NCBI GenBank assembly: GCA_018814355.1
Contig: JAHIZT010000037.1
Location: 5,989 to 69,988, forward strand
Reading direction: 5' to 3'
DNA length: 64,000 bases
Source of the DNA: Thermoplasmatota archaeon
GTDB lineage: Archaea > Thermoplasmatota > Thermoplasmata > UBA10834
Positions 21,459 to 64,000 of this stretch are shown here, one piece after another; positions within the stretch are counted from its first letter, which is position 1; each line of letters begins with the position of its first letter. A program made the translations under genes and the position numbers. The notes under the pieces are model-generated. The model searched no databases and was not told the origin of the DNA. It saw nothing but the letters and a program-made list of their open reading frames with translations.

Positions 21459-21468
21459 GATTATCAAC

Positions 21469-25121: not shown

Positions 25122-25277
25122 GAGTGCATCCCGAAGGGTCTAATGCCAATGCGGTCTAAGAACATTTCTACGTGCTCTGCTCGGCGCCGGCGGTTCTTTG
25201 AAGAATCTCGTTCGGCCAGATGTACGCTGCATGTAGCTGATACCATTTACCCTCTGGAGGCCGGTCGCGAAGCTGGT

Positions 25278-45973: not shown

Positions 45974-46458
45974 CCCAACATCTCCTTCGTGTACGGGACC
46001 AGGCCACCCTTCTCTATTAGCATCATGACGAAGGGTGGGTACTTCGCGAACACAGCACTGTTTCCAGTGGTGAGGTTGTCCACGGACCCGTTCTTCAGGT
46101 CCACAGCGATGATGTCTCCATCCGAGGCATGGATTGATGCCTCTATGACTGGCAAGCCTATGTTGATAGCGTTCCTGAAGAAGATTCTGGCGAACGATTC
46201 GGCGACGACGCAGGATATCCCGACACCGATGAGCGCCCTCGGGGCATGCTCCCTGCTGGATCCACAGCCGAAGTTCCTTCCCGCGACCAGGACGTCTCCT
46301 CGATTGACTCTTTTCACGAACTGAGGCCGCGCATCCTCGAACGCATGCTTCGCGAGCTCAGCATTGTTCATTGTGACCAGGTACTTGGCAGGGATTATCT
46401 GATCCGTGTCCACATTGTGGTCGAAGACCCAAGCCTTCCCCTTGAAGGAATCGTTCAT
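45961..46458 (-). CDS. leuD: 3-isopropylmalate dehydratase small subunit
   Basis: Aconitase swivel-domain pattern, 165 aa, overlapping leuB and leuC. Confidence 0.9.
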   Translation of the reverse strand: MNDSFKGKAWVFDHNVDTDQIIPAKYLVTMNNAELAKHAFEDARPQFVKRVNRGDVLVAGRNFGCGSSREHAPRALIGVGISCVVAESFARIFFRNAINIGLPVIEASIHASDGDIIAVDLKNGSVDNLTTGNSAVFAKYPPFVMMLIEKGGLVPYTKEMLGCRE

Positions 46459-47717: not shown

Positions 47718-47738
47718 CCCGTCAAGTCCCGAGCGGGC

Positions 47739-49394
47739 TCAGTACGCCCGCTTCTTCTCCACGCCGTTGCTCACGCTGAGCTTCCGAACCCACAGTCTGT
47801 TCAGGCCTTCGATCATGGCATCCACGCTCGTAGTAACGATATCCGAACCGACGCTCTTCCCCAGCGATAGCAATTGTGCGTCCTCGCAGTCCCCAAGCTT
47901 CACTGTCACCTCGCAAAGGGCGTTCGATCCGCCCGTTATGGCTTCTAGCCTGTACTCATTGAGAACGATGTTCTTCGATACTGCCGCCTTGATGGCACAC
48001 ACGCTCGCGTCAATCGGGCCGACACCCGTTTCTGAAGCCCTGCGGGTCTCTCCATCTATGTTCAGCACGACAGTTGCAGTTGGCGTGAAGTTTAGTCCTG
48101 TGAAGACGGTGAACTCCTCGAGCTTGATGGCGGGCTCTGCCTCTTGACCCATGACGTCGTATGCGACCGCGAGCAGCTCCGCATCGTCCAGCTTCTTTCC
48201 GGATTCGGCCCATTTCTTCACCCTCGTCACGACCTCTTTCATCTGGTCCTTGTCAAGTTCGAGCCCGTACTCCCTGAGCTTGTTGTCGACTGAGTGAGCG
48301 CCAGAGTGCTTGCCGATGACGAACTTGCGCTCTTTGCCCACTATCTCCGGCCTCATCGGCTCATATGTCGAGCACTCGCTCATCACACCGTGAACGTGAA
48401 TGCCTGCTTCGTGCGAGAAGGCGTTCTCTCCAACGATGGCCTTGTTCGGTTGGACCGCTACACCTGTCAGTTGAGAGACCAGCCTCGAAACGAACGCCAT
48501 CTTCCTTGTATTGATGTTCGTCCTGACGTTGTAGAACGCCTGGAGTCCCATCACGACTTCCTCAAGGGCAGCATTGCCTGCGCGTTCCCCGAGACCGTTG
48601 ATTGTGCAGTGAACCTCCTCAGCTCCACCGAGGACTCCGGCAAGTGAGTTCGCGACTGACATGCCGAAGTCGTCGTGACAGTGGACAGCCAATGGGACTT
48701 TCACGCTCTTCTTGATCTCCGCGACGAACTGGGTCATGGCAGTCGGTGTCATGACTCCTACCGTGTCCGCGATGTCTATTCTATCAACGCCCACTTCCTG
48801 GATCGCCTTGTGAACCACGTCGAGGAACCCAAGCTCGGTCCTGGTGCCATCCTCGCAGCTGAACTCGGCGATCAATCCATGGTCCTTGGCGTACTGAACG
48901 GCCGCGACCGCTTTGTCCCTTGCTTCCTCTTGTGTGATCTTGAGCTTCTTCTCCAGGTGGGTTTTCGAGGTCGCCAGGAAAATGTGGACCGAATCGACAT
49001 CGCATGCGAGTGCGGCGTCTATGTCCCCTGGGCTGGCCCTGCAGAGTGCGCATATTTCGGCCTTCAGGCCAGCACCTGCGATCCTGCTCACTGCATCGGC
49101 CTCGCCCTCAGAATTGATAGGGAATCCCGCTTCAATGATGTCCACGCCGAGCTCGTCCAGCGCCTGCGCGATTTTCACCTTGTCCTCGCTGGATAGGGCC
49201 ACGTTTGGCGTCTGCTCCCCGTCTCTCAGAGTGGTGTCCAGGATCTTGACCCTCTCAGGCATCCTTGTGGCCGAGAAGATCTGTTTGTTGTATTCACTGA
49301 CGAACACTCCCGTATCGGGTATCCTGAGCGCGGGTTCCGCTGTCTGTTTAGCATTCTCACTCGGAGCTTGTGTTGGCATCAATACACTCTCCAA
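47739..49394 (-). CDS. leuA: 2-isopropylmalate synthase / (R)-citramalate synthase family; canonical start may be at 49262 ([17 protein letters not shown])
   Basis: [11 protein letters not shown], a HMGL-like TIM barrel, and a C-terminal LeuA dimerisation/regulatory domain. The longer ORF adds a 44-aa N-terminal extension preceded by GGAG. Confidence 0.85.
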
Positions 49395-49666
49395 AAATCC
49401 TTCACTGCAGCCCTCAGGCTAGAATACGCAGCCCCAAGGGCAGAATAGGCAGACCGTTGCTCATGTGCGTCATTCCTCGCCTCTGTTCGCAGTGGAGTCA
49501 TACCTTGATAAGGCGTGACAAGTCTCCTCATGGCCTGGACCGATATAAATCTTTGCTGAGCCATTGTTATTGGTCCGGTAGGATTTCATCTGGACACATC
49601 TGTACAATATGGACTCCCTGAACATGCTCTTGGAAGGTTAGAAATACGTCAATCAAGGTACTGCGC

Positions 49667-50506
49667 GTGATACTCTTGAGCAAGGAGCCGCTTGTGGCAT
49701 TCCAAGGTGAGAAGGGGGCGTACTCCGAAGACGCTTGCTTCAAGTACTTCGGGTCTAGCGTTAAGACGAGACCCTTCCTCGATTTCCTGTCTGTGTTCGA
49801 GGCGGCGGAGCAGGACAAGGCAACGCATGCAGTGGTCCCTGTCGAGAATTCCATCGAAGGGAGCGTGGCTCAAGTGAACGATCTTCTCCTCGACCATGAC
49901 CTCGCCATCTCGGGCGAGATCATCGTGCCTGTGAAGCATTACCTCATGGCCTACGATGACGCGACTATTGATTCGATAAAGGAGGTCCTGAGCCATCCGC
50001 AAGCTCTAGGGCAGTGCCGCAAGTTCTTGGCCAATCATGAGGACTGGAAGGTCATTCCATCTTACGACACGGCCGGCAGCGCGCGGATGGTCGCGGAGCG
50101 GAAGCGGAAGGATGTCGCAGCCATCGCCAGCAAGCGTGCAGCTACCGTATACGGTCTGAAGATACTCAAGGAGGACATCCAGAGCGAGGTCGTCAACTAC
50201 ACGCGATTCTTCGTCCTCGAGAAGAACCCAGGCCCTATCCAAGGAGTCAACAAGACCTCGATCGTGTTCGCCACCAAGAACGCTCCGGGGGCGTTGCACA
50301 AGTGCCTGGACGAGTTCGCGTCGAGGAACGTCAATCTGAGCAAGCTCGAGTCGAGACCAAGAAAGAACAAACCTTGGGTTTACGTCTTCTACACGGATTT
50401 CGATGGTAGCATGGACGATCCCAACTGCCACGCCGCCATAGGGGGCTTGCTGAAGACAGGGGCTTTTGTCAAGATACTCGGGTCCTACAAGAAGGCAGAG
50501 ATCTGA
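49667..50506 (+). CDS. pheA: Prephenate dehydratase with C-terminal ACT domain
   Basis: PDT domain (VAFQGEKGAYSE...TRF) and a C-terminal ACT domain, at 279 aa. Confidence 0.85.
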   Translation: MILLSKEPLVAFQGEKGAYSEDACFKYFGSSVKTRPFLDFLSVFEAAEQDKATHAVVPVENSIEGSVAQVNDLLLDHDLAISGEIIVPVKHYLMAYDDATIDSIKEVLSHPQALGQCRKFLANHEDWKVIPSYDTAGSARMVAERKRKDVAAIASKRAATVYGLKILKEDIQSEVVNYTRFFVLEKNPGPIQGVNKTSIVFATKNAPGALHKCLDEFASRNVNLSKLESRPRKNKPWVYVFYTDFDGSMDDPNCHAAIGGLLKTGAFVKILGSYKKAEI

Positions 50507-50679
50507 GGACCTATTCGTCCGTCCAGGCACTGACCATTGAATTCATGGCCACCACTGCCCTGGGGCTGTAGATTATGATCTTCCATAGACCGTCAGGAAG
50601 GACACTTGTCGTGGAACCATAGAGAACGAACAGCTTCGAAGAAGTCCGGAGGTCTACTGGATGAGAGTGATTCAAGCCA

Positions 50680-52032
50680 TCATGCAGGAATCCCGGCTAT
50701 TCTGGACTCCTTCTTGAGCTCATCTACGGCGCCGGTGCCACTAAGGACCTTTCTGTCTCGCTCTAGGAGTGCCAGATCCCTCTCCTCGAACGCCTTCGGG
50801 TTGACTGCCAAGAGCAGGCGCCCTTTCGTGACCCAAGCAGTCTCGTTGAGGGAGTCTAGCGATCTCAGCACCTTCCTGAAGTCGTTGTACGTGACAATGT
50901 ATTCGATCCCCTCGACAACGACTATGCTGTTCGGATTGGATTCCATGAAGCGGATGATTGTATCTGTGAGGACTGCGAGGCTGGTCGGTGCGATCCTTCT
51001 CTCTCCCGGAGATTCGGTCAGCCAGATTATAGGAGTCACCTGGAGGTTGTGCCTCTTTCTGATGCCTTCCGGGAACTCCCTAGTAACGACTAGTCCGCTA
51101 GGAATGAGGAACTGCAGGGTCGCGGCCGCGGACTCCTCTCTTCCAGGGATCTCAGCATCAGGCCTAAGGGGCATTGTGACGAGCTCCGAGAAGAGGCTCA
51201 AAGCAGCGTCTGCCTTCTCATCATAAACCAGGTACACTCCCCTGGGGATGTCGTACGATCTGAATCCACCCATCTTGGCGGTTTCCACTTCTGGATCGAC
51301 GACGATCGCCATGAGCTGAGATGTGAATGTGGCCCTCATCAGGGTTGCGAAGAGTAACACGAGGATCCAGTTGTGCGGGTTGAGATTTTCCCAGCTTCTT
51401 CCTACTCCTAGGACGAGGTCGAATACGAACTCAACAGCCGGAGTTCCAAGCCATGCGACTGTGAACAAGGCCAGGCTGATCCTTGTCTCCCTGGTGATTC
51501 CAGATACACTCCCCCTTGTCATCCATTTCGCCGAAAGGAGGAGGTTGCTTGCGATCATTGCGAGAATGTAGATCGACACCAGAACCATCAGCCAAAGCTG
51601 ACTCTCCAGTATGGTTTCTGGGCTCAGGTCCGATGCCCATGTCATCGCCACAAGCACAATGCCGAGTATCCCCCATGCGCTAATCAGATTAAGGGGGTTC
51701 TTCTTGAACCACGGCACGAACATATCAACGTCGTTGTACCTTCCGTGCGTAGTCCACAGGAGGACCACGCAGACGGACAGCCATGACGAGAAAATGACAA
51801 AAGTCATACCCATCTTGATGTGCAGGTCGTCGAACGAGTTGCCCATTGTATCCGTGATGAGTTCCACGGACCACAGGCCTGCGAGCGAGACCACGAATAG
51901 TAATACGATCCAGCTTCTGACCACCTCAAAGAAGTGCTCCATCCTGCTGATTCGGTAGAAGACGTGAAGAACGATGGCGAGACCTAACAGCGCTGGCAGA
52001 GCTTCGAATGCTATCTCGGTCCAGTCAATCAT
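50680..52032 (-). CDS. Membrane protein: N-terminal about 7-TM domain plus C-terminal DUF835-like cytoplasmic domain
   Basis: Seven N-terminal hydrophobic helices and a soluble C-terminal half resembling DUF835, at 450 aa. Confidence 0.55.
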   Translation of the reverse strand: MIDWTEIAFEALPALLGLAIVLHVFYRISRMEHFFEVVRSWIVLLFVVSLAGLWSVELITDTMGNSFDDLHIKMGMTFVIFSSWLSVCVVLLWTTHGRYNDVDMFVPWFKKNPLNLISAWGILGIVLVAMTWASDLSPETILESQLWLMVLVSIYILAMIASNLLLSAKWMTRGSVSGITRETRISLALFTVAWLGTPAVEFVFDLVLGVGRSWENLNPHNWILVLLFATLMRATFTSQLMAIVVDPEVETAKMGGFRSYDIPRGVYLVYDEKADAALSLFSELVTMPLRPDAEIPGREESAAATLQFLIPSGLVVTREFPEGIRKRHNLQVTPIIWLTESPGERRIAPTSLAVLTDTIIRFMESNPNSIVVVEGIEYIVTYNDFRKVLRSLDSLNETAWVTKGRLLLAVNPKAFEERDLALLERDRKVLSGTGAVDELKKESRIAGIPA

Positions 52033-52143
52033 TTGTGGCCTCCGCGAATGTGCTCTCTTGCCATATCAGGTCAAGTGCCTCGAAGGTCAATAATCTTTGC
52101 GCGATCCAAAAGCGCTGATCAAGGGGGAGTCAGTACTCTCCAA

Positions 52144-53823
52144 TCATTCCAGTAGGGCGCCTAGGCTCGCTGAGGATACTCCGTCTCTGTAGCGTTTCAG
52201 ATAGCCAGACATATTCGTCTTGGGAGGTTTCTTGTCCTTCAGCCTGGATCTCATCTCCTTCTGGGAAATCAAGACTTCTATCTCTCGAGTATCGAGGCTT
52301 ATTCTGATGATGTCTTTGTCCATGACCGACGCGAGAGCTCCTCCCACGAATGCCTCCGGGGAAACGTGTCCAACAGAGAGTCCTCTGCTTCCGCCTGAGA
52401 ACCTTCCATCAGTGACAAGGGCGACAGACTCACCCAGACCCATTCCCGCAAGGATGGCGGTCAGGCTCAGCATCTCAGGCATGCCAGGAGCACCTTTTGG
52501 ACCTTGGTACCTGACGATGACTGCATCGCCGGGCTTGATTCTGCCTGCGAGCATCGCATCCGTTGCGGCTTTCTCGGTGTCGAACACCTTGGCTGAACCT
52601 TCGAATCTCCTCATGGCTGGCACGACTGCCGACTGCTTGACGACGCACCCCTCCTCGGCCAGGTTGCCCCAGAGTATCGCGATTCCGCCCTCCTCGTGGT
52701 ACGCCTTGTCCAGTTCTCGAACCACATCGTGATCCTTGACTATGGCATTCTTGGCGATTGCCAAGATGCTGTCGCCTCGAACGGTTCCCTCGTCTCTCAG
52801 CTTGGGAGCGAGCCTCGAAAGCACTGCCGGGATTCCCCCTGCTCTGTCCAGGTCTATCATGAAGTGGTCACCACCGGGTTTCAGCGCGACGATGTGCTTG
52901 GTCTCCCTGGATATCTGGTCGAAGAGATTCAGCTCTAGCGTTATCCCGAACTCCTTCGCGATCGCTATCATGTGGAGGCAGGTATTCGTAGACCCACCGA
53001 TGGCGTTGTCGACTCTGAGAGCATTCTCAAAACTCCCCCTGGTTACGAAGTCCCTTGGTTTGACATTCTTCATGGCCAGTTCGACCGCCAGCGCGCCAGT
53101 CTCGCGAGCAATCTCCAGTTTCTCGTCTGAGATGGCGTGAGAAGTCGCGCAACCGGGCAGGCTCAGTCCTAGCGCTTCGGTTAGGCAAGCCATTGTATTG
53201 GCAGTGAACAGGCCGGAGCACGATCCCGGCCCGGGGCATGCCCGCTTTTCGATCTCGACGAAATCTTCCTGTGTGATCTTCCCGGCCGCGAGTTCACCCA
53301 CTGCTTCAAAGATTGAGATGACGTCCAGTTTCCTGTTCTTGTACAGTCCAGGCATCATTGGGCCGCCGGTCAAGATGACAGAAGGCACGTTGATTCTCCC
53401 GCAAGCCATCAACATTCCAGGAGTGATCTTGTCGCAGTTCGTGACTCCAACCCAGCCGTCTGCGACATGTGCCTCCACCATCGCTTCGACGCTGTCGGCT
53501 ATGATCTCTCTGGATGGCAACGAGTAGCGCATCCCGTCCAATCCCATGGCTATGCCATCGCATATTCCCGGGACTCCGAACTCGTATGCGACACCGCCCG
53601 CCTCCTCAATCCCCTTCTTAACCTCGGTCACGAGCTTATTCAGGTGCATGTGTCCAGGAATGATCGTGTTGAACGAGTTGGCGATGGCTACTAGTGGCTT
53701 TTCCATGTCATTGTCCTTCATGCCGAGCGCTCGCAGCAGTCCTCTCGCCGGGGCTCTGGACATTCCTTTCTTGAGCGCGTCGCTCCTGAGCGGTGCATTG
53801 GGCTGATGTCTCGCCATGTTCAC
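52144..53823 (-). CDS. ilvD: Dihydroxy-acid dehydratase
   Basis: The IlvD/EDD family is collinear, with Fe-S Cys ligands (CDKITPG, CPGPGSC), at 559 aa. Confidence 0.9.
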
Positions 53824-55223
53824 TCACCCAATCTGAAGTCACTGTGAAGAGCCTCTACGGCCTTCTTCGCGTCGACCTTCTTGATGATGAACGATATGTT
53901 CAATTCTGAGGAACCCTGAGCGATGGCCCTTATGTTAACCTCGTTTTCCGCCATCGTGCCAAAGACCCTCGCTGCTACTCCAGGGGTGCCTCTCATACCA
54001 GCCCCGACCACAGCGACGATGCTGAGCCCGTCCTCGATTGAGACCTCTCTTACCTGCTTCGAGCCCAGCAGCGAGAGCTCGAGCGCATTCTGCGCCTTCG
54101 ATCCGCTGACTTTAGGTATCGCAAGGGTTATGCTCTCCTCTGAGGAACTCTGAGAAATCATGAGCACATCGATGTCTTCATCTGTGAGTATCTGAAGGAC
54201 CTTCGCCGCGAGCCTCGGCGTCCCGACCATGCTCGCTCCGCTGACTGTTATCAGACTGACATCATTGATGTTCGTGATTGCTTTTACAACGTCGCCGGTC
54301 TTCACCTTGACCGCGCTCTCGATTGCAGTGCCCTTCGCATCAGGGTCGTTTAGGCTCTTGATTCTGAATGGTATCTGATACCTGGCTGCGCACTCGAGCG
54401 CCTTGGGGTGGATCACTTCAGCGCCGAAGTGCGCCAGCTCCATCGCCTCAGCGAACGATATCGTTTGAATCATTTTTGCATTCTTGACGATCTTCGGGTT
54501 GGCAGTCATAAGGCCGTCAACGTCCTTCCAGACCCATACTTCATCGGCTTCTATCCCGGAACCGATGATGGATGCTGTGTAGTCGGACCCACCTCGTCCA
54601 AGGGTCGTCTGGACGCCGTCCTGGGTCGACGCAATATAGCCGCCGATGACAGGGACAGTGCGCTCTTCGAGCAACGGATCGAGGTTCTGTCTTATCTGGT
54701 GAATGGACACATTCATCAGAGGATTGGCGTCCCCGAAATGGTCATCAGTGACTATCCCTGCCTCCCCTCCGGTGAGTGCCTTCGATTTGATGCCGAGATC
54801 TTCGAGCACGCCCTGCAGGATGGGCGCAGAGAGTTTCTCACCATATCCAGCCACGTAATCCTTCGACCTGGGCGTCAGTTCACCGATGTGCGCAATGCCA
54901 TTGAGGATGTTCCTTAGCTCGTCCAGCCGCGAGTTAACGACATCCATCGTCCGGCCCAGGATGTGCTCGTCCATGATTGCCCCTTCCGCCGCCTTTCTGT
55001 GCTTCGAGGCAGTTGTCTCCATGAACTCATGGACGGCCTTCTTGTCCCCCTTGCTTGAGCGCTTCGCAATGTCGGCCAGGGAATCCGTTACCCCGTACAT
55101 GGCGGAAGTGATGACCACCAGCTGCTGGTCCTTCTTGTGGAAGTTGCGAACTATCGTTCCCACTTTCCTCAGCTTGTCGCCGTCCGCGACACCAGCACCG
55201 CCGAACTTCATGACGAGTTTCAT
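53820..55223 (-). CDS. lysC: Aspartate kinase with C-terminal ACT domains
   Basis: Amino-acid kinase fold ([14 protein letters not shown]...) plus tandem ACT domains, at 467 aa. It overlaps the ilvD start by 4 nt. Confidence 0.9.
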
Positions 55224-55261
55224 GATTGGACTCCTCTAGAATCGATACCCGACAAAAATAC

Positions 55262-56278
55262 CTATCGGGCGAAGGTCCTCCTGATCTCTATCAGGTCCCT
55301 GAGGACCGAGCTAGCAGTCTCCTTGCCTCCAGCTCCTTTTCCAACGAGGGTTATCTCGCCAGCGGGATAAGTGTCGAATGATACCGCGTTGAATGTGCCG
55401 CTCACATTGAGAGGGTGAGTTGCGGGGATTTCCTCTGGCGAGACCCGCGCTCCCTTCTCAACCTTGCCGATGAGCTTGACCACGCTACCATTGGACTTCG
55501 CCATGTTGATGTCTTTGTTCGAGACCTTAGTTATTCCCTCTATCTCCACATCTTTGATTGACAAGCTTGTCCCGAGTACGTAGTTGGATGTGATTACCAG
55601 TTTGCAGGCGGTATCGAACCCGCCGATATCATAGGTCGGGTCTGCTTCAGCATATCCGAGCCTTTGTGCCTCGGCGAGCGCATCCTTCATGGCGACGCCG
55701 TCAGCAGACATCCTGCTGAGGATGTAATTCGATGTGCCGTTCAGGATCCCGCTTATGGACTTGATCTTGCTACCCTCGAGGCATTTCTTCGCGAAATCCA
55801 GGACTGGAGTGCCGCCGCCTACAGTGCCGCTGAACTTGAATATGACCTGGTTGTGATGAGCCAGCTCGATCAAAGCAGGCATGGCGATGGCCAGCGGACC
55901 CTTGTTTACGCATATTACGTTCCTCCCCTCCTTCATGGCGGCCTTCACGTGGCTCAATCCAGGCTCTCCCTTCTTGAGCTCAGTTGGAGTGCTCTCGATC
56001 ACGACCTCGCACTCCAGCTCGTTGATGACATCCAGGCCGGATTTCCCTTCCTGATAAACCTCCGCTCCGAGACCTTCAAGCGTCTTGGACACCCTCTTTG
56101 ACGACAACGCCTTGCCGATGTCTATACCCTCAGGCGAGATGGCAGCTCCTAGGTGGTCAACCACTCCAACTATCTTCGGCCTCAGGCCGTAGTCGCGTTC
56201 GAGCTTTCTCGCTTCCTGATCCACGAGGTCTACGAAACTCTGGCCGACTGCGCCAAAACCTACCAAGAGAACTCTCAT
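55262..56278 (-). CDS. hom: Homoserine dehydrogenase
   Basis: N-terminal NAD-binding MRVLLVGFGAVGQ and a homoserine-DH catalytic domain, at 338 aa. Confidence 0.85.
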   Translation of the reverse strand: MRVLLVGFGAVGQSFVDLVDQEARKLERDYGLRPKIVGVVDHLGAAISPEGIDIGKALSSKRVSKTLEGLGAEVYQEGKSGLDVINELECEVVIESTPTELKKGEPGLSHVKAAMKEGRNVICVNKGPLAIAMPALIELAHHNQVIFKFSGTVGGGTPVLDFAKKCLEGSKIKSISGILNGTSNYILSRMSADGVAMKDALAEAQRLGYAEADPTYDIGGFDTACKLVITSNYVLGTSLSIKDVEIEGITKVSNKDINMAKSNGSVVKLIGKVEKGARVSPEEIPATHPLNVSGTFNAVSFDTYPAGEITLVGKGAGGKETASSVLRDLIEIRRTFAR

Positions 56279-56279
56279 T

Positions 56280-57521
56280 TCAGCTCGCCTCCAGGAGCTT
56301 CTGAAGAGCCTCTATCGTCGCATCGATAACCATCGGCTTGACGCTCTGAGATATCGCCACATCTGGATCCTTGAGCCCGTGACCAGTGGAGACGCAGACT
56401 ACAATCGATGATTTGTCAAGCATGCCAAGTTCGACGTCCTTGACAAGACCCGCAACCGCTGCCGCTCCTGCAGGTTCTGCGAATACTCCTGCAAGCGTGG
56501 CCATGGACTTCTGGGCATTGAGTATCTCTTGATCGGACACGGTCGTGACCGAACCACCGGATTCCTTGATAGCCCTGACGGTCTTCTTCCAGTTGGCTGG
56601 TTTTCCGATCCTTATGGCAGTGGCAACGGTCTCGGGTTTCCTGACGGGCGTGAGCTCGCTGCTTCCCGACCTGAACATGTTCGCGATGGGCGCTGCTCCT
56701 TCCGCCTGGATCCCTCTGATGACTGGGTGACCAGGAACGAACCCCATGGACTCGTACTCTTCGAACCCTTTCCAATAGGCAGCAGAGTTGCCCCCGTTTC
56801 CTACCGGAATGTAGAGGTATTCGGGGTTGAGGCCGCCGAGCTGATCACAGATCTCGTACGCAGCGGTCTTCTGCCCTTCGATCCTGAACGGGTTGACCGA
56901 GTTCAGGACGTACATGCCGAGTCTATCAGACGACTCCATGACTATGTCCAATGCTTGATCGAAATTGCCTCTTACGGTGACCACAGTAGCTCCATGCATC
57001 ATTGCTTGAGCGAGTTTTCCCAAGGCTACCTTCCCCTCGGGGATGAGCACGACGCATTTGAGGCCAGCAAGCCCAGCATACGCTGCAAGTGATGCCGACG
57101 TGTTACCCGTGGAGGCGCATGTGACGGTCTTCATCTTGAGTTCGACAGCCTTGGTTATCCCGACCGTCATGCCCCGGTCTTTGAAAGATCCTGTAGGGTT
57201 TGTCCCGTCGAACTTGATTCTGAGGCTCTTGATCCCAATCTCCTGCGCGAGCCTCCGACACTCGATCATCTGCGTGCCACCCTCATCGAGAGAAAACACC
57301 TGTGCCTTCGGTCCTACCGGGATGAATTCTCGGTACTTCCACACCGAGATCGGCCTCTTCTTGAAATCCCCGATCGAGGCCCTCTTGAGCGCGGCTTCCG
57401 TGTCCATCCTGATCTCAAGGAGGTTGCCGCAGGAAGAACATGCATAGGCCGGCCTAGCAATGTCATGTGCTTTGCCGCACTCGATGCACTTCAACTCGAA
57501 CGAGACCATGGGGTGCCCCAC
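56280..57521 (-). CDS. thrC: Threonine synthase (archaeal type with N-terminal Zn-ribbon)
   Basis: PLP-lysine region (NPTGSFKDRG), an N-terminal CIECG...CSSCG ribbon, and 413 aa. Confidence 0.9.
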   Translation of the reverse strand: MGHPMVSFELKCIECGKAHDIARPAYACSSCGNLLEIRMDTEAALKRASIGDFKKRPISVWKYREFIPVGPKAQVFSLDEGGTQMIECRRLAQEIGIKSLRIKFDGTNPTGSFKDRGMTVGITKAVELKMKTVTCASTGNTSASLAAYAGLAGLKCVVLIPEGKVALGKLAQAMMHGATVVTVRGNFDQALDIVMESSDRLGMYVLNSVNPFRIEGQKTAAYEICDQLGGLNPEYLYIPVGNGGNSAAYWKGFEEYESMGFVPGHPVIRGIQAEGAAPIANMFRSGSSELTPVRKPETVATAIRIGKPANWKKTVRAIKESGGSVTTVSDQEILNAQKSMATLAGVFAEPAGAAAVAGLVKDVELGMLDKSSIVVCVSTGHGLKDPDVAISQSVKPMVIDATIEALQKLLEAS

Positions 57522-57678
57522 CGGATGAGTCCTCTATGGTAAGTGGAAATATAATCTCTTCGCAGGTCTGGATATTGCCTTTGCGGACTGCTGGCCGGAT
57601 GCGTGGTGCACAATTCTGTCCATGAGCCGGAGGACGCGCGCATCTTAATATCCGAGCACGACATGCACATGTGGCCAG

Positions 57679-58614
57679 GTGTCTCGGATGAGGTGCGAGC
57701 GAGCGATAGTATCTTCTCCTGCAACCATCGCGAATTTTGGCCCAGGCTTTGACTCGTTCGGGCTCTGTCTGGGTTCGCCGAGGGACAGGATATCCATCAG
57801 AAGGTTGCCACGGGGTAGATACGAGGTAAGGGTCGTCGGCAAACACAAGGTCCCGACCGACCCATCGGAGAACACAGCTTCGTATGCCGCAATCAAGTTG
57901 GCCGGGCTGTGCGGCTGTGAGGATACCGGATTCTCCATGACTGTCAGGAAGGGCATGAAACCTGGAAGTGGTCTTGGGAGCAGCGCAGCCTCGTCAGCAG
58001 GCGGTGCCGTCGCGATGGCAACGATTCTGGGGTTGCGGAACAAGGAGATGATCCTCGAGGCAGCGGCTATGGGTGAGGAGCTTGTGGCTGGGTCGCGGCA
58101 CTTCGATAACGTATCCGCAGCGATTTACGGAGGATTCACGGTCGTCTCTGATCTGAAGACCAGGACTGTCCTTCAGATACGGCCTCCAAAATTCCAGATC
58201 GTCGTCGCACTTCCAGAGATATCGGTCGAGACGAGGAACGCTCGGGAGATCCTCCCTAATTCGGTCTCAATCGCTGATGCAGTGTGCAATGTCGGATGGG
58301 CGTCTGGAATGCTGCACGCCATGATGAAGCGAAACGTGCGCATGATCGGATCCTATCTTGATGACAAGCTAGCGCTGCCGTACAGAATTGCACTCATACC
58401 AGGTTACCAGGCGGTCCGCCTCGCGGCCTTGAGCGCAGGGGCATATGGCGTCTCAGTTGGCGGATCAGGCCCAGCTGTCTTCGCCATCACACAAGGCAAT
58501 GCCGTACGGATCAAGAATGCCATGGTGGATGCGTTCCGGAGCTCCTCAAACCTCAAGGCGAGTTCGTTCATCACTGTGCCTGGGACGGGAGCAAAGGTAG
58601 AGGATTCGAGCTGA
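57679..58614 (+). CDS. thrB: Homoserine kinase (GHMP kinase)
   Basis: PATIANFGPGFD and the GHMP motif GSGLGSSAASSAGGAVA. Confidence 0.85.
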   Translation: MSRMRCERAIVSSPATIANFGPGFDSFGLCLGSPRDRISIRRLPRGRYEVRVVGKHKVPTDPSENTASYAAIKLAGLCGCEDTGFSMTVRKGMKPGSGLGSSAASSAGGAVAMATILGLRNKEMILEAAAMGEELVAGSRHFDNVSAAIYGGFTVVSDLKTRTVLQIRPPKFQIVVALPEISVETRNAREILPNSVSIADAVCNVGWASGMLHAMMKRNVRMIGSYLDDKLALPYRIALIPGYQAVRLAALSAGAYGVSVGGSGPAVFAITQGNAVRIKNAMVDAFRSSSNLKASSFITVPGTGAKVEDSS

Positions 58615-58625
58615 TCCAGCATCCT

Positions 58626-59633
58626 CTAGAAGACGATTCGCTCCCCAGGTACCCTGGGGAACAACGTGACGTCCCTTATGTGCTTCTGACCTGTCAGGAA
58701 TCGAACCATCCTCTCGATCCCGAGGCCGCCACCGACCGTTCGCGGAATCAGGCCCTGGCTAGAGACCGTCAGGTATGTATCGAAGGCCCTGAGATCCGTC
58801 TTTCTCTCTTTCATCTTGCGGAGTATCTCTTGATGCTCCCACTCCCTCTCACCGCCGGAGAGGGCCTCGCCATAACCTTCGGGCCAGAAGACATCGTAGT
58901 TGTGGTAGTAGCCTCTCTTCTCTTTGTCCTCTCGGTCGTAGAACTCCCTTCTGAAGTTCATTATCCAGAACGGGTCCTTTGCCTGTTCGGAGGCTATCCT
59001 CTCGAAATGCTCGCCATGCAGTCTGATCAGGTCCTCTGATTCGTAGACTTTCAGTGGGAGCCTCGGCACGATGAGTTCCCTATCGAGTGCTCTCAGGTCG
59101 TCAGAACACTCCCTCTTCACGAACTTGAATACGTCGACTATCATGCCATCGATGAATCGGATGAAATCCTTCTTCGTCTTGTCCTTCAACTCTATGTCCA
59201 CTTGAGTGAATTCGAAGAGATGCCTTCCGCTCTCCTTCAGCGCGCCCTCTTCAAGCCTGACATTCGGCGACATGAAGTAGATCTTGTCTATGCCGTCGTT
59301 GAGGAGCGAGAGTTGCTTGTGAAGGATCATACTCTTCGTCAAGTGCAACTTCTGTCCATAGTACTCCACTGTCGCCGCGAAGTGTGGATGGTTCAGAGGA
59401 TCTGTCTCAGGCGAAAGGATAATGGGCATCGCCTGAACCACCCCGCGCTTGTACATGTAGTCGTGAATGGCTTTCAGCGCTGCCGACTGCACGCTCAATA
59501 TATGTTTGCGCTTCTCCCCTCTTATGTGCGACACCGCTTCCTTCATGCTAATCCTTGACGGAAGGACGGACATCCCAGCAAGGTATATCACCATTTCGCC
59601 AACATATCCGACTATTGTCCGATATTCAGGCAA
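58626..59633 (-). CDS. asnA: Asparagine synthetase A, archaeal AsnRS-like type (class IIb aaRS catalytic-core paralog without anticodon-binding domain)
   Basis: Class II motif 3 GGGLGIERMVRFLTG...RDVTLFPR and motif 2-like FEFTQVDIE. At only about 305-335 aa it has no OB-fold. Confidence 0.65.
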   Translation of the reverse strand: MPEYRTIVGYVGEMVIYLAGMSVLPSRISMKEAVSHIRGEKRKHILSVQSAALKAIHDYMYKRGVVQAMPIILSPETDPLNHPHFAATVEYYGQKLHLTKSMILHKQLSLLNDGIDKIYFMSPNVRLEEGALKESGRHLFEFTQVDIELKDKTKKDFIRFIDGMIVDVFKFVKRECSDDLRALDRELIVPRLPLKVYESEDLIRLHGEHFERIASEQAKDPFWIMNFRREFYDREDKEKRGYYHNYDVFWPEGYGEALSGGEREWEHQEILRKMKERKTDLRAFDTYLTVSSQGLIPRTVGGGLGIERMVRFLTGQKHIRDVTLFPRVPGERIVF

Positions 59634-59667: not shown

Positions 59668-60105
59668 ATGTTGGACGAAAAGGATTCGTCTATCCTCGAA
59701 GAACTGATGATGGACTCTCGAAAGACGACAAAAGCCATCGCAAGAGAGCTTGGAATCCCGAGAGCCACAGTGCACGACCGCATCGTGAAGATGGAGCAAA
59801 AACACATCATCAAGAAATACACGGCAGTGCCAGACTACTCCCAGCTTGGTCTTGGGGTCATAGCTTTCATACTCGTCCAGTTCGAGTCCGAGAAGGGGCT
59901 TTCTCAGCGCGACACCGCCGATGACATCGCCTCGATATCAGGGATATTCGAGGTCCACATGATCTCCGGCGAATACGACATGTTGCTCAAGGTCCGCGGC
60001 TCGAGCATGGAGGAGATCGGCAAGCTCGTGATAGACCGCCTCCGCGAGGTGAAAGGCGTAGCCAGGACTCTGACATGCGCTTGCTTCACGACCGTGAAGG
60101 AATGA
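59668..60105 (+). CDS. Lrp/AsnC-family transcriptional regulator
   Basis: N-terminal HTH (LDEKDSSILEELMMDSRKTTKAIARELGIPRATVHDRI) plus a C-terminal RAM domain, at 145 aa. Confidence 0.85.
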   Translation: MLDEKDSSILEELMMDSRKTTKAIARELGIPRATVHDRIVKMEQKHIIKKYTAVPDYSQLGLGVIAFILVQFESEKGLSQRDTADDIASISGIFEVHMISGEYDMLLKVRGSSMEEIGKLVIDRLREVKGVARTLTCACFTTVKE

Positions 60106-60115
60106 GGACTGACCG

Positions 60116-61558
60116 TCACTTCATCCGTTTCCGAACCAGCCTCTGAGCGGTCTCCGCGACCTCGCCCCTGACGGGATCGACATTGTGCTCCTTGAAGATC
60201 CTCTTGACCTCTTCTCCGGCTCTTTGCATCAGAGTCTTCGAACCCTTGGCGACCCAGGTGTCGAAGGAGGATCTGTCTGAGACAATCGGGATGAAATGCT
60301 CCGTCCTGAAGTGTTCCATGGTGTGTCTCTGGCCGAGATAGTCCTTGGCGATGCCCACCTTGTTGATGACTTCGAGTGCGAGCGTGTCCTCGTTGACATC
60401 GATTCCGCGCGCCATCCTCTCGATTATCTTGGACATCTCGCTGTCGATCACCAGTTGCTCGAGCCAGAGCGTCCTGCAATCCTCTATCAGCCCAATGCCG
60501 GCTATCATGTCCGCGCCTGCGAGGATTGGCGTCACCGCGCTCGCGAACTTCTCGTATGCAGCTTGCTCGTCAGGTTCCTTGGCCGTCGTTACAAACCCAC
60601 CTACCAGCGAAGGGAATCCCATGCTGTGGGCCATTTGAGAATAGGCTGCAGATGTGAGGCCGTGCTCAGGCCCTCCTCCAGCGCGAGTCGAGGTCTTCAT
60701 GTCCAGGTTCGCCATTCCGCATGAGAACACGAATGCCGTCCCGGGGGTCTGGACCTGCATGATCGTGTTGCCGGCCAGCGCCTCCGCAACCCCGAGCGCC
60801 ACTGATCCCGCCAATGTTGCGGGGCCAGTCGACCCAGGGCCTGGCATTACGTAGAAACAGATCGGAATGCCTGCCTCCGCCATGAACAGACCGGCGTCCA
60901 GGCTCCCTCCCTCTATCTGGAGAGGCGAGAAGCTGGTGTGTATGGATGATATGATCGGTCTTCTCCTGAGTTCCTCGTGACTGCCGGCGGCCGCAGCTGC
61001 GAGCTCGAGGACGTCCTGAGATTCCCAGACCGATGTATTTGTTGCGATAGTGATATGTTTCTCGGTGTTCTCGAGCGATGCCTGGAGATCGTGAATGTGC
61101 CTCGTTCCCGTGGGAACGTCCTGTGAAGTCACGGACGGCCAGTTCACGCCGTGGCCAGCGAGTGCATCTGTGACGAAGGCGCTCTTGGCGACATCGGATT
61201 TCTTCGAGGGCCTCCTCTGCCTCGATTCGAAGTCAATCGCATCAGTGCCGTTCCCGTCGCTGCAGATGTGCACGTGCTCGAAGTCAAGCCTCGCATCGTG
61301 CTTCCTCGTCCTTCCGTAGAGCGTGACCGTCCTGTCGTTCTTCTTGGTGCACTCCAATACGAGTGACTGGGGAAACTTCACGACTGCGCTTTTCTTGTCA
61401 ATCTCGCAGCCCGCCTCGCGAAGCAACTCCTGCGCTTTTTCGCTTCGAACCGCAACCCCCGTCTGTTCGAGTATCTCCAGGGCTGCGTGCCGTATCTTCG
61501 CGACCCCGTTCTTGTCCAGCAATTCCCGCCTGCATCGGACGGGTATTGAGTTCGCCAT
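60116..61558 (-). CDS. MttB-superfamily (trimethylamine methyltransferase family) corrinoid methyltransferase, non-pyrrolysine type
   Basis: A TIM-barrel MttB family collinear over about 480 aa with no in-frame amber. The start was trimmed to MANSIPVR. Confidence 0.85.
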   Translation of the reverse strand: MANSIPVRCRRELLDKNGVAKIRHAALEILEQTGVAVRSEKAQELLREAGCEIDKKSAVVKFPQSLVLECTKKNDRTVTLYGRTRKHDARLDFEHVHICSDGNGTDAIDFESRQRRPSKKSDVAKSAFVTDALAGHGVNWPSVTSQDVPTGTRHIHDLQASLENTEKHITIATNTSVWESQDVLELAAAAAGSHEELRRRPIISSIHTSFSPLQIEGGSLDAGLFMAEAGIPICFYVMPGPGSTGPATLAGSVALGVAEALAGNTIMQVQTPGTAFVFSCGMANLDMKTSTRAGGGPEHGLTSAAYSQMAHSMGFPSLVGGFVTTAKEPDEQAAYEKFASAVTPILAGADMIAGIGLIEDCRTLWLEQLVIDSEMSKIIERMARGIDVNEDTLALEVINKVGIAKDYLGQRHTMEHFRTEHFIPIVSDRSSFDTWVAKGSKTLMQRAGEEVKRIFKEHNVDPVRGEVAETAQRLVRKRMK

Positions 61559-61672
61559 TGCTTGCCCCCAATTCTTCTCTGACTCTCCCGTGTTACCGTA
61601 GTTGTGTCCGGAGAAATGGTGAAAGGTGTAGTTGTGACCGGAACGCATCTCTGCGTCCGGCCAGCGAAATGT

Positions 61673-63142
61673 CTAGTGGGTCTTCGACTCCCCGCCCCAC
61701 ATCGGCTTCTTTGCCTTCTCGATGATGGCGTCCAGCTTCTTCTGGGCGTTGGCATCGAGCGGCGGAACCTTGTGGTTCGCGAGAATTTCCTTGACTTTCT
61801 CCCTTGCCCTGTCCCTCATGGACTTCGAGCCGGTCTGCGACCACGCATCGAACGAGCGCCTGTCGACGAGGTTCGGCATGAAGAACTCGGTCCTCATGTG
61901 AGTCAACGTGTGCCTCTGGGCCAGGAAGTTCTTGCCCGGACCCACCTTCTCGATGACGTCCAGTGCCATCGTCTCGTCGTCCGCCCATTCGCCCCTGATG
62001 AGCCTAGCGATCGCGCCGACGATCTCGTCGTCGATCACAATCTCCTCGTAGAAGAGGCAGCTCGAATCCTCTAGCAGGCCAACGCCGCACATCAAGTCAG
62101 CTCCAGCCAGCAATGGACCGACGCAACCAGTGTAGTACTCCATCACCGCCTGGTCTCCCGGCTCTTTAGCTGTCGCCGAAACGCCGACGCATGACGGCAT
62201 TCCATAGTGGTGCGCGAGCTCGGTCGCAATCGCAGATGAGATCGCGTGCTCTGGGCTCCCACCCGCTCTTATGGTTGTCCTCATGTCCAATGGTGCGTTG
62301 CCCATCCCGTAGATGACAGCCGCTCCTGGCGTGGACAGTTGGATCATTGTCAGTGCGCTGAGCACCTCAGCGTTGCCGACAACGAGCGAGCCGACCAAGG
62401 TCGCTGGTCCAGTTGCGCCAGGTTGCGGCATCCCAAAGAATACCAGTGGGACTCCGGCTTTGGCGAACTCTAGGCTCGCGTCCATGACGCCCGCATCATG
62501 CTGAAGAGGAGCATATGTGCACTGCAGGCATGAAGACAGCGGCCTTCTCCTGTATTCCTTCTCGCCGCCAGCGGCTGCGTACCCCATCTCCGTCAGGGTC
62601 CTCGCATCGGAGACCGTCACGCCCGTCTCGTACATGACGTGCTTCTCGGTGTTGTTGAGAGAAGCGTCGAAGTCGTGCAGGTGCACGGTGGACGGGTGTT
62701 GGTCAGTGGAGCTTACCATCGGCCAGTGGATATGCACGTTCTCGAGCGTATCGATGATCCTCGAGGAGTTCGCGACATCCTTCTTCATCGACGGCCTTCT
62801 CTTTCCGCTCTCGAAGTCCACCGTCACGGCGCCGTTACCGTTAGCGGTCATGTAGCTGTGGTTCATATCCAGCTTCGCATCGAACTTCGGGTTCCTGCCG
62901 GCAAGCGTTATGGATGCTTTCTTCTTCGCCAGCGCCTCCTCGACCAAATGCGATGGGATCCTAGCTATTCTCGTCTTCTCGTCGACTTCACAACCATTGT
63001 CTTTCAGTAGCTTCCTACAGGCGACGCTGTCAACCTGGACACCTACCTTCTCGAGTATATGGAGTGTGCCCCAGTGGATCCTGTTCAAATCGCCGTCGCC
63101 AAGGATTTGGAAGCGGACGCCCCGCTTAATGCCAAAGGCCAT
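61673..63142 (-). CDS. MttB-superfamily corrinoid methyltransferase, non-pyrrolysine type (paralog of the 60116-61558 gene)
   Basis: 489 aa and about 45% identical by eye to its neighbour across aligned blocks. The reading frame is continuous. Confidence 0.85.
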   Translation of the reverse strand: MAFGIKRGVRFQILGDGDLNRIHWGTLHILEKVGVQVDSVACRKLLKDNGCEVDEKTRIARIPSHLVEEALAKKKASITLAGRNPKFDAKLDMNHSYMTANGNGAVTVDFESGKRRPSMKKDVANSSRIIDTLENVHIHWPMVSSTDQHPSTVHLHDFDASLNNTEKHVMYETGVTVSDARTLTEMGYAAAGGEKEYRRRPLSSCLQCTYAPLQHDAGVMDASLEFAKAGVPLVFFGMPQPGATGPATLVGSLVVGNAEVLSALTMIQLSTPGAAVIYGMGNAPLDMRTTIRAGGSPEHAISSAIATELAHHYGMPSCVGVSATAKEPGDQAVMEYYTGCVGPLLAGADLMCGVGLLEDSSCLFYEEIVIDDEIVGAIARLIRGEWADDETMALDVIEKVGPGKNFLAQRHTLTHMRTEFFMPNLVDRRSFDAWSQTGSKSMRDRAREKVKEILANHKVPPLDANAQKKLDAIIEKAKKPMWGGESKTH

Positions 63143-63148
63143 TGGTGC

Positions 63149-63781
63149 TCACCTGACCAGTTTCTTCGCCACATCAACTGCGCCAGATGCGTCGCCACTG
63201 TAGCCGTCAGCGCCGATCTCTTTTGCATACGTGTCTGTAACCGGTGCCCCGCCTACAAGGACCTTGACGGCCTTGCTCTTCTCCTTAAGTGGGGTTATGA
63301 TCTCTGCCATCCTTGGCATGGTCGTCGTCATGAGTGCGGACATGGCCACCATCTGCGGCTTCGCCTCGTCTGCCTTCTTCAGGAAGTCCGCGGCCTGGAC
63401 GTTGACTCCAAGGTCTAGGACCTCGAATCCATTCGCGGACAGCATCGTCGCAACTAGGTTCTTGCCGATCTCGTGGATGTCGTCCTGGACCGTTCCGATG
63501 AGTACCTTGCCAGCGCTTGCCCTGTGCTTTCCCGCTGGAACGGCAGGCTCGAGCACGGCCAATGCGGCCTTCATCGCTTCGGCGCCCATGACTAGCTCGG
63601 GTAGGTAAATCTCTCCCTTTCCGAACCTTTCACCGACAGTCTTGATACCTTCCGCCAATCCCTTCTCGATGGCGACGAGCGGATCAACGCCGTCCTTCAG
63701 TGATTGCTTTGCGAGGTCGGCGATTGTTTCCATCTCGTAGTTTATCACAGCATTCTTTAGCCGTGTTACTGCATCTTCCAT
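63149..63781 (-). CDS. Cobalamin-binding corrinoid protein (MtbC/MttC/MtgC-like)
   Basis: A B12-binding_2 helical cap plus a Rossmann B12 domain with DxHxxG (DDIHEIG). It is 210 aa and lies 6 nt upstream of the mttB paralog. Confidence 0.85.
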   Translation of the reverse strand: MEDAVTRLKNAVINYEMETIADLAKQSLKDGVDPLVAIEKGLAEGIKTVGERFGKGEIYLPELVMGAEAMKAALAVLEPAVPAGKHRASAGKVLIGTVQDDIHEIGKNLVATMLSANGFEVLDLGVNVQAADFLKKADEAKPQMVAMSALMTTTMPRMAEIITPLKEKSKAVKVLVGGAPVTDTYAKEIGADGYSGDASGAVDVAKKLVR

Positions 63782-63960
63782 TGGTTATACCCCCAGTAGC
63801 TTTCCTTCGGGATTTCGTCCCTCTGGATCTGTTTCGGAATCCAAAGTCGTCCATCCAAAGGATGGCCGCTCTGTCCCGCTTCAGATTGAAACGGCATATG
63901 CACCTTCCTAATTAAGGTTTCGTTCATATGATTATCTCCGCCCTCTAAGAATGTCCTCAA
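63766..63960 (-). CDS. Small hypothetical ORF (64 aa) upstream of and overlapping the corrinoid protein gene; weak
   Basis: An ORF with no recognisable motif, near the window edge. Confidence 0.2.
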   Translation of the reverse strand: MRTFLEGGDNHMNETLIRKVHMPFQSEAGQSGHPLDGRLWIPKQIQRDEIPKESYWGYNQWKMQ

Positions 63961-64000
63961 AGACTCAAACGGTCCTTGCTTGAATTCAATTGATGAAGAC

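Follow-up and report, generated by a model that had tools for sequence, protein, structure and literature searches.

A tandem pair of pyrrolysine-free MttB-superfamily methyltransferases with a shared corrinoid protein and a structured leader RNA in a non-methanogenic Thermoplasmata archaeon

At one end of a 64,000-nucleotide stretch of contig JAHIZT010000037.1 (hereafter the window) lies a minus-strand operon in which the gene for a corrinoid (cobalamin-binding) carrier protein is followed by those of two divergent methyltransferases of the MttB superfamily, both lacking pyrrolysine (Pyl), and is preceded by a structured, non-coding 5′ leader. The host is a non-methanogenic, uncultured Thermoplasmata archaeon from sediment and belongs to the order UBA10834, or Candidatus (Ca.) Gimiplasmatales, which is defined by the metagenome-assembled genomes (MAGs) RBG_19FT_COMBO_56_21, RBG_13_57_23, UBA9653, and UBA10834. 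Thermoplasmatota MAGs at NCBI have contigs that encode the same proteins, and the window differs from one such public contig at 6 of 10,852 bases. In a scan of one genome per species, the first of the two methyltransferases, paralog A, is present in 49 loci, 48 of which come from uncultured Thermoplasmata; in the four order-defining MAGs its identity is 78–84%.

The corrinoid protein gene (63149..63781, minus strand; 210 amino acids) is the operon's first gene. Paralog A (61673..63142, minus strand; 489 amino acids) starts exactly 6 nt after its stop codon, and paralog B (60116..61558, minus strand; 480 amino acids) follows after an intergenic gap of 114 nt. The reading frame of paralog B is open over a longer interval, 60116–61648 on the minus strand (510 amino acids); ortholog alignment places its start at Met31 in 27 of 27 orthologs, in agreement with the public gene call. 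No in-frame TAG interrupts either paralog, and the stop codon of paralog A is itself TAG. The original prediction for this DNA, made from its letters alone, had described two divergent non-Pyl MttB-superfamily reading frames, fully open and free of amber codons, with a cognate corrinoid protein after them at a spacing of 6 nt. All three genes are confirmed in place, as are the open frames and the spacing. The order is not: because the genes lie on the minus strand, the corrinoid gene leads the operon rather than closing it. Across the window, TAG is the stop codon of 10 of 46 genes; its share in Pyl-using Methanomassiliicoccales is at most 11% (PMC3941956). No tRNA gene was found within the 64-kb window.

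Both methyltransferases are members of the MttB superfamily (PF06253, COG5598), with matches well above the cutoff of 25 bits for paralog A (E = 1.5e-93, 313.9 bits) and paralog B (E = 6.9e-86, 288.7 bits) that cover profile positions 30–497 of 500. They are 43.8% identical to each other. The corrinoid protein combines the Pfam domains B12-binding_2 (4e-20) and B12-binding (5e-29) and carries the motifs DxHxxG (DIHEIG) at residue 101, SxL (SAL) at 148, and GG at 177; among NCBIfam models it scores 201 bits with pyl_corrinoid and 178–191 bits with MtgC/MtbC-like models, all under their cutoffs. Ratios of nonsynonymous to synonymous substitution (dN/dS) against orthologs are 0.06–0.09 for the corrinoid protein, 0.02–0.08 for paralog A, and 0.05–0.14 for paralog B. 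Such values, together with a gene order kept in ~30 species-level genomes, indicate that these are genes under selection and not chance open reading frames (ORFs).

Two crystallographically described members of the superfamily frame the question of what A and B might demethylate. Paralog A residues 3–483 align with residues 10–494 of Methanosarcina barkeri MttB (7xcl; E 9e-83, 282 bits) and paralog B residues 19–477 with residues 26–487 (E 2e-66, 228 bits), and matches to the glycine betaine methyltransferase MtgB (9yce/2qne; also 4yyc) reach 3e-65 and 224 bits for A and 2e-54 and 188 bits for B. Judged by these alignments, homology spans the whole TIM barrel and the C-terminal dimerisation loop of the solved members. 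Both paralogs nonetheless fall under the cutoff of 525 for the equivalog model TIGR02369, at 453.8 bits (A) and 427 bits (B). In Pyl-MttB the active site comprises Gly110-Thr111, Met249, Pyl334, and Tyr364 (Li et al., PMC9842639). Every Pyl-MttB has Tyr364, which the enzyme requires for full activity: Vmax is ~28-fold lower in the Y364F variant (PMC9842639). The glycine betaine site of MtgB is instead built from Tyr97, Arg312, His348, and Phe356 (Picking et al., PMC13080624); Arg312 and His348 both contact the substrate carboxylate, and the Tyr97/Phe356 aromatic pair is not conserved outside MtgB (PMC13080624). Arg312 holds the acid group and is shared by all quaternary-amine members characterised so far (PMC13080624, PMC12155760). 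The known non-Pyl substrates are all acidic quaternary amines, and even choline needs phosphorylation first (Jiang et al., PMC12155760).

Equivalent residues were assigned from HMMER alignments to the MttB and MtgB structures and by aligning 83 family ORFs of Thermoplasmata loci with MAFFT, with ortholog sets of 41 for paralog A and 27 for paralog B. At the position of Arg312 (Tyr329 in MttB), paralog A has Cys318 (41/41) and paralog B Leu318 (27/27). Pyl334 is replaced by Ser322 in A (41/41) and by Val323 in B (26/27), and Tyr364, which is adjacent to His348, by Cys352 (41/41) and Ala353 (27/27). At His348, the one-residue insertion of MtgB is absent from both paralogs, the flanking residue being Cys in A and Ala in B. 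Asn103 stands for Tyr97 of MtgB and Thr111 of MttB in every ortholog of A (41/41) and of B (27/27), and Phe356 corresponds to Ser in A (39/41) and to Cys361 in B (27/27). The Gly110 and Met249 equivalents of the MttB pocket are kept. Paralog A thus has the invariant pocket signature N103, C208, C318, S322, C352, and paralog B the signature N103, T208, L318, V323, A353, C361. Among the alignment columns fixed in both orthogroups, 108 are identical and 36 different; several of the latter are the equivalents of MtgB R312 and of MttB Pyl334 and Y364. An arginine in the Arg312 column is found in 0 of the 83 MttB-family ORFs of Thermoplasmata loci and in 9 of the 147 nearest cluster representatives, so it is commonly absent from this uncharacterised region of the superfamily.

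These pockets separate two parts of what the original prediction had proposed, namely two specificities in tandem, directed at quaternary-amine osmolytes. Each orthogroup's own set of invariant pocket residues, under dN/dS of 0.02–0.14, bears out two distinct specificities; betaine-type substrates find no such support, with Arg312 invariably exchanged for Cys or Leu and His348 and both aromatics missing. Nor is Pyl-type activation of trimethylamine expected from pockets that lack both pyrrolysine and Tyr364. Since the Pyl site and the Arg312/His348/aromatic set are both missing, the methyl donors of A and B probably belong to a chemical class different from all six characterised ones. Paralog A has the further peculiarity of three invariant cysteines, C208, C318, and C352, at the positions of C219, Y329, and Y364 in MttB and of R312 and H348 in MtgB. 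Two of them, falling at or next to R312 and H348, are probably neighbours at the pocket floor. All three occur together in 0 of the 147 nearest cluster representatives, and recurrence of the triad was therefore set aside as support for a metal site. A sub-threshold Rfam match to PYLIS_3 in paralog B (60493–60603, minus strand; 27.2 bits versus 38) was likewise rejected as a Pyl insertion element, because its ‘UAG’ is out of frame (codons V319-G320), two of its pairs are non-canonical, and the remainder is coding homology to the ‘AKxPDxQA’ stretch of mttB, which lies downstream of the former Pyl position.

The same separation from known enzymes is seen in the phylogeny. An exhaustive profile-free search with paralog A, clustered at 50% identity, recovered 8,423 related clusters, the best of which beyond its own is only 44% identical. 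Pyl-MttB is represented in the protein database by 333-amino-acid truncations ending at the UAG and by two full-length read-throughs. When 178 sequences are placed in a neighbour-joining tree (200 bootstraps), A and B group with a third paralog type (P3) from RBG-16-type genomes, where the gene order is corrinoid protein, P3, and an A-like gene. This clade of A, B, and P3 has 198/200 support and consists of Thermoplasmata sequences only. The Pyl-MttB clade has 200/200 support and is never its sister, in keeping with the original prediction; the smallest clade uniting paralog A with Pyl-MttB never holds fewer than 47 sequences. The separate, Thermoplasmata-only clade points to a lineage-specific expansion, made up neither of degenerate Pyl enzymes nor of MtgB orthologs.

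The alternative operon with the third paralog (corrinoid protein 57–63% identical, then P3, then A-like) is seen at L027:3025–9464 and in L026, L033, L036, L037, and L040. The pocket residues of P3 are T, L, D, V, and A, and in L027 two divergent major facilitator superfamily (MFS) transporter genes lie ahead of the operon. Across both architectures paralog A is constant, and paralog B and the third type alternate.

Beyond the window, a public contig extends the locus by 10 kb. A gene for a 296-amino-acid pterin-binding methyltransferase (PT) begins 106 nt past the window end, divergent from the operon and separated from the corrinoid gene by a 324-bp intergenic region; it is a candidate for the second methyltransferase (MT2) of a system in which A and B would be the first (MT1). 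It scores 102 bits with Pterin_bind (PF00809) and 275.9 bits with NF005719, above the cutoff of 259 for this model of methyl-tetrahydrofolate (methyl-THF):corrinoid/iron-sulfur protein (CFeSP) methyltransferases. With the methyltransferase-subunit model of carbon monoxide dehydrogenase (CODH)/acetyl-CoA synthase (ACS) it reaches only 130 bits versus a cutoff of 370, and no cdh/acs genes lie near it. The nearest solved structures are Carboxydothermus MeTr (2yck, 1e-38), the folate domain of MetH, and the MT2 of a Desulfitobacterium hafniense O-demethylase. MtgA and MthA, the bacterial MT2s of MttB-family systems, belong to the same family. An MtbA-like MT2 and RamA had been expected just past the window edge. 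The gene found there is this Pterin_bind methyl-THF:corrinoid methyltransferase, with no URO-D match (the family of MtbA and MtaA) in the window or its 10-kb flank; no RamA was found either, among window ORFs of at least 180 amino acids and the called genes of the 10 kb beyond. A downstream methyl-acceptor enzyme does exist, in the form of the pterin-binding candidate.

The order of a divergent MT2 gene followed by corrinoid protein, A, and B is kept in ~30 species-level genomes, with identities to the window proteins of 77–97% (A), 72–91% (B), 82–96% (corrinoid protein), and 77–94% (MT2). A more direct connection comes from RBG-16-type genomes. In L035 (2703–10758) and L031, an MT2 paralog with 42% identity stands in one gene string between methylenetetrahydrofolate reductase (MTHFR) and other MttB paralogs. 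The string runs from an A-like MttB through a MetE-like Meth_synt_2 gene on the opposite strand, MTHFR, and the PT-like gene to a distant MttB paralog, and ends in a second distant, convergent MttB paralog. This is a direct MT2–MTHFR–MttB gene link in a sister order, and it is stronger support for coupling than adjacency. Further upstream of the MT2 candidate in the window lineage are an Opp-type ABC transporter, a DUF362 ferredoxin-like protein, IS605 genes, and a sensor kinase. The Opp-type transporter was considered as a clue to the substrate and discarded, being conserved like the housekeeping neighbours and belonging to too broad a family. No BCCT or ProX-type betaine transporter is found nearby; the neighbouring transporters are of the Opp-type ABC kind and, in relatives, MFS.

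The operon is preceded by a structured non-coding 5′ leader (63779..63897, minus strand) made up of a long hairpin P1, a second hairpin P2, a Shine-Dalgarno-like GGGGGT, and the corrinoid ATG. It is ~105–119 nt long and lies inside the 324-bp MT2–corrinoid region. Ahead of it, a block resembling the archaeal B recognition element (BRE) and TATA box, cGAAAC(C/A)TTAATTAGG (63905..63922, minus strand), followed by the invariant ATGCCGnTTCAAT, is (near-)invariant in the 29 aligned loci between flanks that are unalignable; by its agreement with the archaeal BRE/TATA consensus it would be the operon promoter. A scan for Sigma-70 promoters and terminators, not applicable to archaea, returned counts at chance level. 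Folds of single leader sequences give the same two hairpins across all lineages, with minimum free energy z-scores averaging ~−2.5 over 18 leaders. A covariance model trained on nine sequences from a single subgroup finds 31 matches, one per locus, always immediately ahead of the corrinoid gene; it matches nothing at other positions in 600 kb and nothing in RBG-16-type loci. Paired cells amount to 87.2%, against 72.2% after shuffling (0/500) and 35–56% with slid partners; 25 of 29 base pairs change on both sides; and compensatory cells number 137 against 51 (shuffled) and 13–43 (slid), in an alignment that, being fitted to the model, favours structure, though the margin is nonetheless large. 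RNAalifold on a plain MAFFT leader alignment found nothing, because the helices are misaligned there and the covariance-model alignment is needed.

Where the RNA is conserved bears on what it may do. The apical loops vary, and it is the foot of P1 and the linkers that hold the conserved bases, a pattern unlike that of a typical ligand-binding aptamer. A leader acting in mRNA stability or protein binding, of the kind known from Methanosarcina methyltransferase and cdh operons, is no less likely than a riboswitch. No Rfam family matches the leader at E ≤ 1, and a conserved upstream ORF was rejected because no ATG-initiated one is conserved. Long 5′ leaders have precedents in the Methanosarcina mtaCB and cdh operons (cited in PMC5112694). 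There as here, the promoter of a corrinoid methyl-transfer operon and its first gene are separated by a non-coding leader of some 100 nt or more. The likeness is one of position and length, and sequence similarity is not expected; the present leader differs in its covariation-supported two-hairpin fold and its restriction to one Thermoplasmata lineage.

The host lineage has been described before. Zinke 2020/21 (bioRxiv 10.1101/2020.03.09.984617) reported pyrrolysine-less MttB-superfamily and MtbC/MttC genes in UBA10834 and RBG-16-68-12, found MtaA, the pyl genes, and mcr all absent from these MAGs, and graded the role of the mttB/mttC genes ‘unclear’. Rasmussen 2024 (PMC11264602) put forward methylotrophic acetogenesis as the metabolism of genus COMBO-56-21, with a gene list of Fhs, FolD, MTHFR, acsA-E, and acdAB, and agrees with Zinke that mcr is lacking in the lineage. 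Non-Pyl MttB/MtbC genes are also known in Asgard, Brockarchaeia, and Culexarchaeia (PMC11291895). In the published reconstructions MT2 is either a gap (‘the second methyltransferase is lacking’) or ‘an undescribed protein’, and trimethylamine or glycine betaine was suggested as substrate from annotation alone. Given these reports of 2020/21 and 2024, the tandem genes as such are not new: the gene sets are the same, the lineage is the same (those studies used the MAGs L017, L044, L018, L030, and L009), and so is the proposed role, a non-methanogenic methylotrophy leading into tetrahydrofolate (THF) and the Wood-Ljungdahl pathway. The additions made here are the location of an adjacent MT2 candidate, pocket signatures that speak against both published substrate guesses, the distinct clade, and the covarying leader RNA.

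On the evidence of the sequences, we consider it likely that the locus encodes a corrinoid-dependent, three-component methyl-transfer system, in which A and B as alternative MT1s, the carrier, and MT2 deliver methyl groups to THF in a non-methanogenic archaeon. One promoter and the structured leader would drive the operon from corrinoid protein through MT1-A to MT1-B. The two paralogs, predicted TIM-barrel enzymes, would each bind a different small methylated substrate, from which the Co(I) corrinoid of their shared carrier protein would take the methyl group. The pterin-binding MT2 would then move it from methyl-Co(III) to THF, and methyl-THF could enter the folate one-carbon pathway (MTHFR/FolD/Fhs), CODH/ACS, or both. 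The outcome would be methyl oxidation or acetyl-CoA formation, not methane. Of the two fates originally suggested, methyl-reducing or methyl-oxidising, the former is unlikely in a lineage without mcr (Zinke; Rasmussen). That suggestion had leaned on HdrA/HdrD-like proteins encoded by the same archaeon; HdrA-like and MvhD/HdrC/CCG-fusion genes are indeed present, at a distance of about 50 kb from the operon.

Several points weigh against this reading. The MT2 gene forms its own divergent transcription unit, separate from the operon, and synteny in the lineage is generally high, with housekeeping neighbours equally conserved, which makes adjacency alone weak evidence for coupling. No RamA/RamQ-type activase was found in window ORFs of at least 180 amino acids or among the called genes of the 10-kb flank (74 kb); one may be encoded elsewhere in the genome. 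The pocket assignments are sequence alignments to two crystal structures rather than readings from a coordinate model, and the tree is distance-based and was built from a set without MtcB, MtpB, MtyB, and MthB.

One doubt concerns the identity of the MT2. The adjacent pterin-binding methyltransferase could be the AcsE of the Wood-Ljungdahl pathway, unrelated to the operon, and the system would then still lack a known MT2, as the 2024 paper has it: methyl-THF:CFeSP methyltransferases are what the neighbour matches best in NCBIfam and the PDB, acsA-E have been reported for related MAGs (PMC11264602), and in a broadly syntenic lineage proximity says little. The low score with the CODH/ACS methyltransferase-subunit model and the want of cdh/acs genes nearby argue otherwise, as do the 42%-identical paralog strung together with MttB paralogs and MTHFR in the sister order and the family shared with MtgA and MthA. 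We judge this alternative, which concerns the MT2 sub-question only, to be unlikely rather than implausible. The direction of flow might also be other than catabolic, with methyl groups feeding methionine synthesis, or methyl-THF methylating an acceptor by way of the corrinoid protein and A/B. Methyl transfer on corrinoids can run in either direction, MetE-like Meth_synt_2 adjoins the A-like gene in L035 and L031, and coupling of MtgB-type demethylation to methionine synthesis has been described in marine bacteria (PMC12478193). The operon of the window lineage has no MetE-like gene beside it, however, and two or three paralogs with different pockets on one carrier fit diversification of methyl donors better, so that a biosynthetic or reversed flow appears very improbable.

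The remaining alternatives concern what A and B act upon. Were they demethylases of quaternary-amine osmolytes (glycine betaine, proline betaine, carnitine, butyrobetaine), served by an adjacent MtbA-like MT2 and RamA and a CoM (coenzyme M)-based methyl-reducing sink, they would resemble all characterised non-Pyl members, which use quaternary amines (PMC13080624, PMC12155760); KEGG-style annotation labels some paralogs of related MAGs mtgB (PMC11264602), and HdrA-like and MvhD/HdrC-like genes lie within the window. Yet the anchoring arginine is Cys in 41 of 41 A and Leu in 27 of 27 B orthologs, H348, Y97, and F356 are absent, the neighbouring gene is a pterin-binding MT2 and not a UroD-family MtbA, no BCCT or ProX-type transporter is close by, the lineage is without mcr (Zinke; Rasmussen), and the Hdr genes are 50 kb off, all of which leaves osmolyte demethylation with slim prospects. 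Pyrrolysine-independent methylamine (e.g., trimethylamine) methyltransfer by A, B, or both draws on Pyl-MttB being the best solved relative (282/228 bits versus 224/188 for MtgB), on the kept pocket residues G110 and M249, on the small, hydrophobic pocket of paralog B (L, V, A, C), and on a suggestion of trimethylamine use by Ca. Gimiplasmatales in PMC11264602, citing Hu et al. 2021. It sits poorly with the replacement of both Pyl334 and Tyr364, given the cost of Y364F in MttB (PMC9842639), with scores below the TIGR02369 cutoff, and with a position outside the Pyl clade; a tertiary amine is not known to be activated for attack by Co(I) without pyrrolysine. We give it little credence. A bolder joint reading would make paralog A a new catalytic or specificity class, in which the Cys triad forms a metal or thiol site, and the leader a new cis-regulatory RNA sensing substrate or cofactor; the triad would then activate a non-acidic donor (methylamine without pyrrolysine, methanol, or a methyl-sulfur compound). 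This combination we regard as quite doubtful.

Among known systems, the closest are MtgB/MtgC/MtgA of D. hafniense and, grouped with it, the Eubacterium limosum MthBCA, MtcB, MtpB, and MtyB systems. The three-component system favoured here shares their logic of a non-Pyl MT1, a DxHxxG corrinoid protein, and a Pterin_bind MT2 to THF. It differs in having two MT1 genes per carrier, an archaeal host, and no activase or BCCT transporter in the cluster, and A and B, although aligned with MtgB over their full length, are only ~33% identical to it and lack its four glycine betaine-binding residues. The Pyl-MttB/MttC systems of M. barkeri and the Methanomassiliicoccales offer the closest solved structure by sequence (7xcl), a like length and domain layout, and a similar corrinoid partner, and the host order is sister to the Pyl-using Methanomassiliicoccales. 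In contrast to Pyl-MttB, A and B contain no UAG, have exchanged Pyl334 and Tyr364, form a separate clade with sub-cutoff TIGR02369 scores, and would hand the methyl group on to a pterin, not to CoM by way of MtbA.

Anoxic sediments of aquifers, floodplains, and wetlands hold Ca. Gimiplasmatales and their relatives in abundance, and these archaea have been proposed as competitors of methanogens for methylated compounds. Since the sequences support neither trimethylamine nor betaines, flux assumptions drawn from those annotations are unsafe. The published MT2 gap now has a candidate beside the operon, which may be the component called missing in the 2024 paper, and its PT-like paralog is tied to MTHFR in the sister order. 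The two or three paralog types, with fixed, contrasting pockets and one shared carrier, are targets for enzymology. With six substrates known for a superfamily of >8,000 clusters (50% identity), any new specificity would be informative. For archaeal gene regulation, the covarying leader RNA offers a small extra lead.

Other features of the window and its flank are of separate interest. Downstream of paralog B and convergent with it, with 10 nt between the stop codons, is a gene for an Lrp/AsnC regulator (59668–60105), which is divergent from an archaeal asparagine synthetase A (58626–59633) as in the classic asnC–asnA arrangement. It was considered as regulator of the operon and rejected, since this pairing suggests that it probably regulates asnA. 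The Hdr-related genes are an HdrA2-like flavoprotein (9215–10996, minus strand; 535 bits versus a cutoff of 1100) and, next to it, a fusion of MvhD, a 2x[4Fe-4S] HdrC-like domain, and two CCG domains (7594–9228, minus strand), with no MTHFR or methyltransferase gene beside them. At 20079–23022 (minus strand), the tetraether lipid synthase Tes (21469–23022; NF045702, 654 bits versus 450) and a geranylgeranyl reductase form a pair for glycerol dialkyl glycerol tetraether lipids. The former matches Pfam Zn_ribbon_HMPTM, which would have implied a methanopterin methylase and tetrahydromethanopterin as acceptor; this assignment was rejected on the NCBIfam identification as Tes. A 1524-amino-acid ORF (25143–29717, plus strand) with a weak Lamin-tail-domain match under the Pfam cutoff probably encodes a large protein that is secreted or sits on the cell surface. 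A DUF2284 predicted metal-binding protein, one of the minus-strand pair 42423–43031/43079–44572, is similar to the C-terminal portion of the ArsM/DUF2284 and MbdU selenoprotein models and adjoins a 497-amino-acid ORF without a family match. In the flank, ~8–9.6 kb past the window end (L001:213–1815), an IS605-type pair consists of TnpB/OrfB, with a Cas12f-like TNB domain, and the Y1 transposase TnpA. A dense block of amino-acid biosynthesis genes fills 44852–58614 and includes an Iso_dh member (isopropylmalate/isocitrate dehydrogenase family), an aconitase-family large subunit, a LeuA-like synthase, prephenate dehydratase, IlvD, aspartate kinase, homoserine dehydrogenase, threonine synthase, and homoserine kinase.

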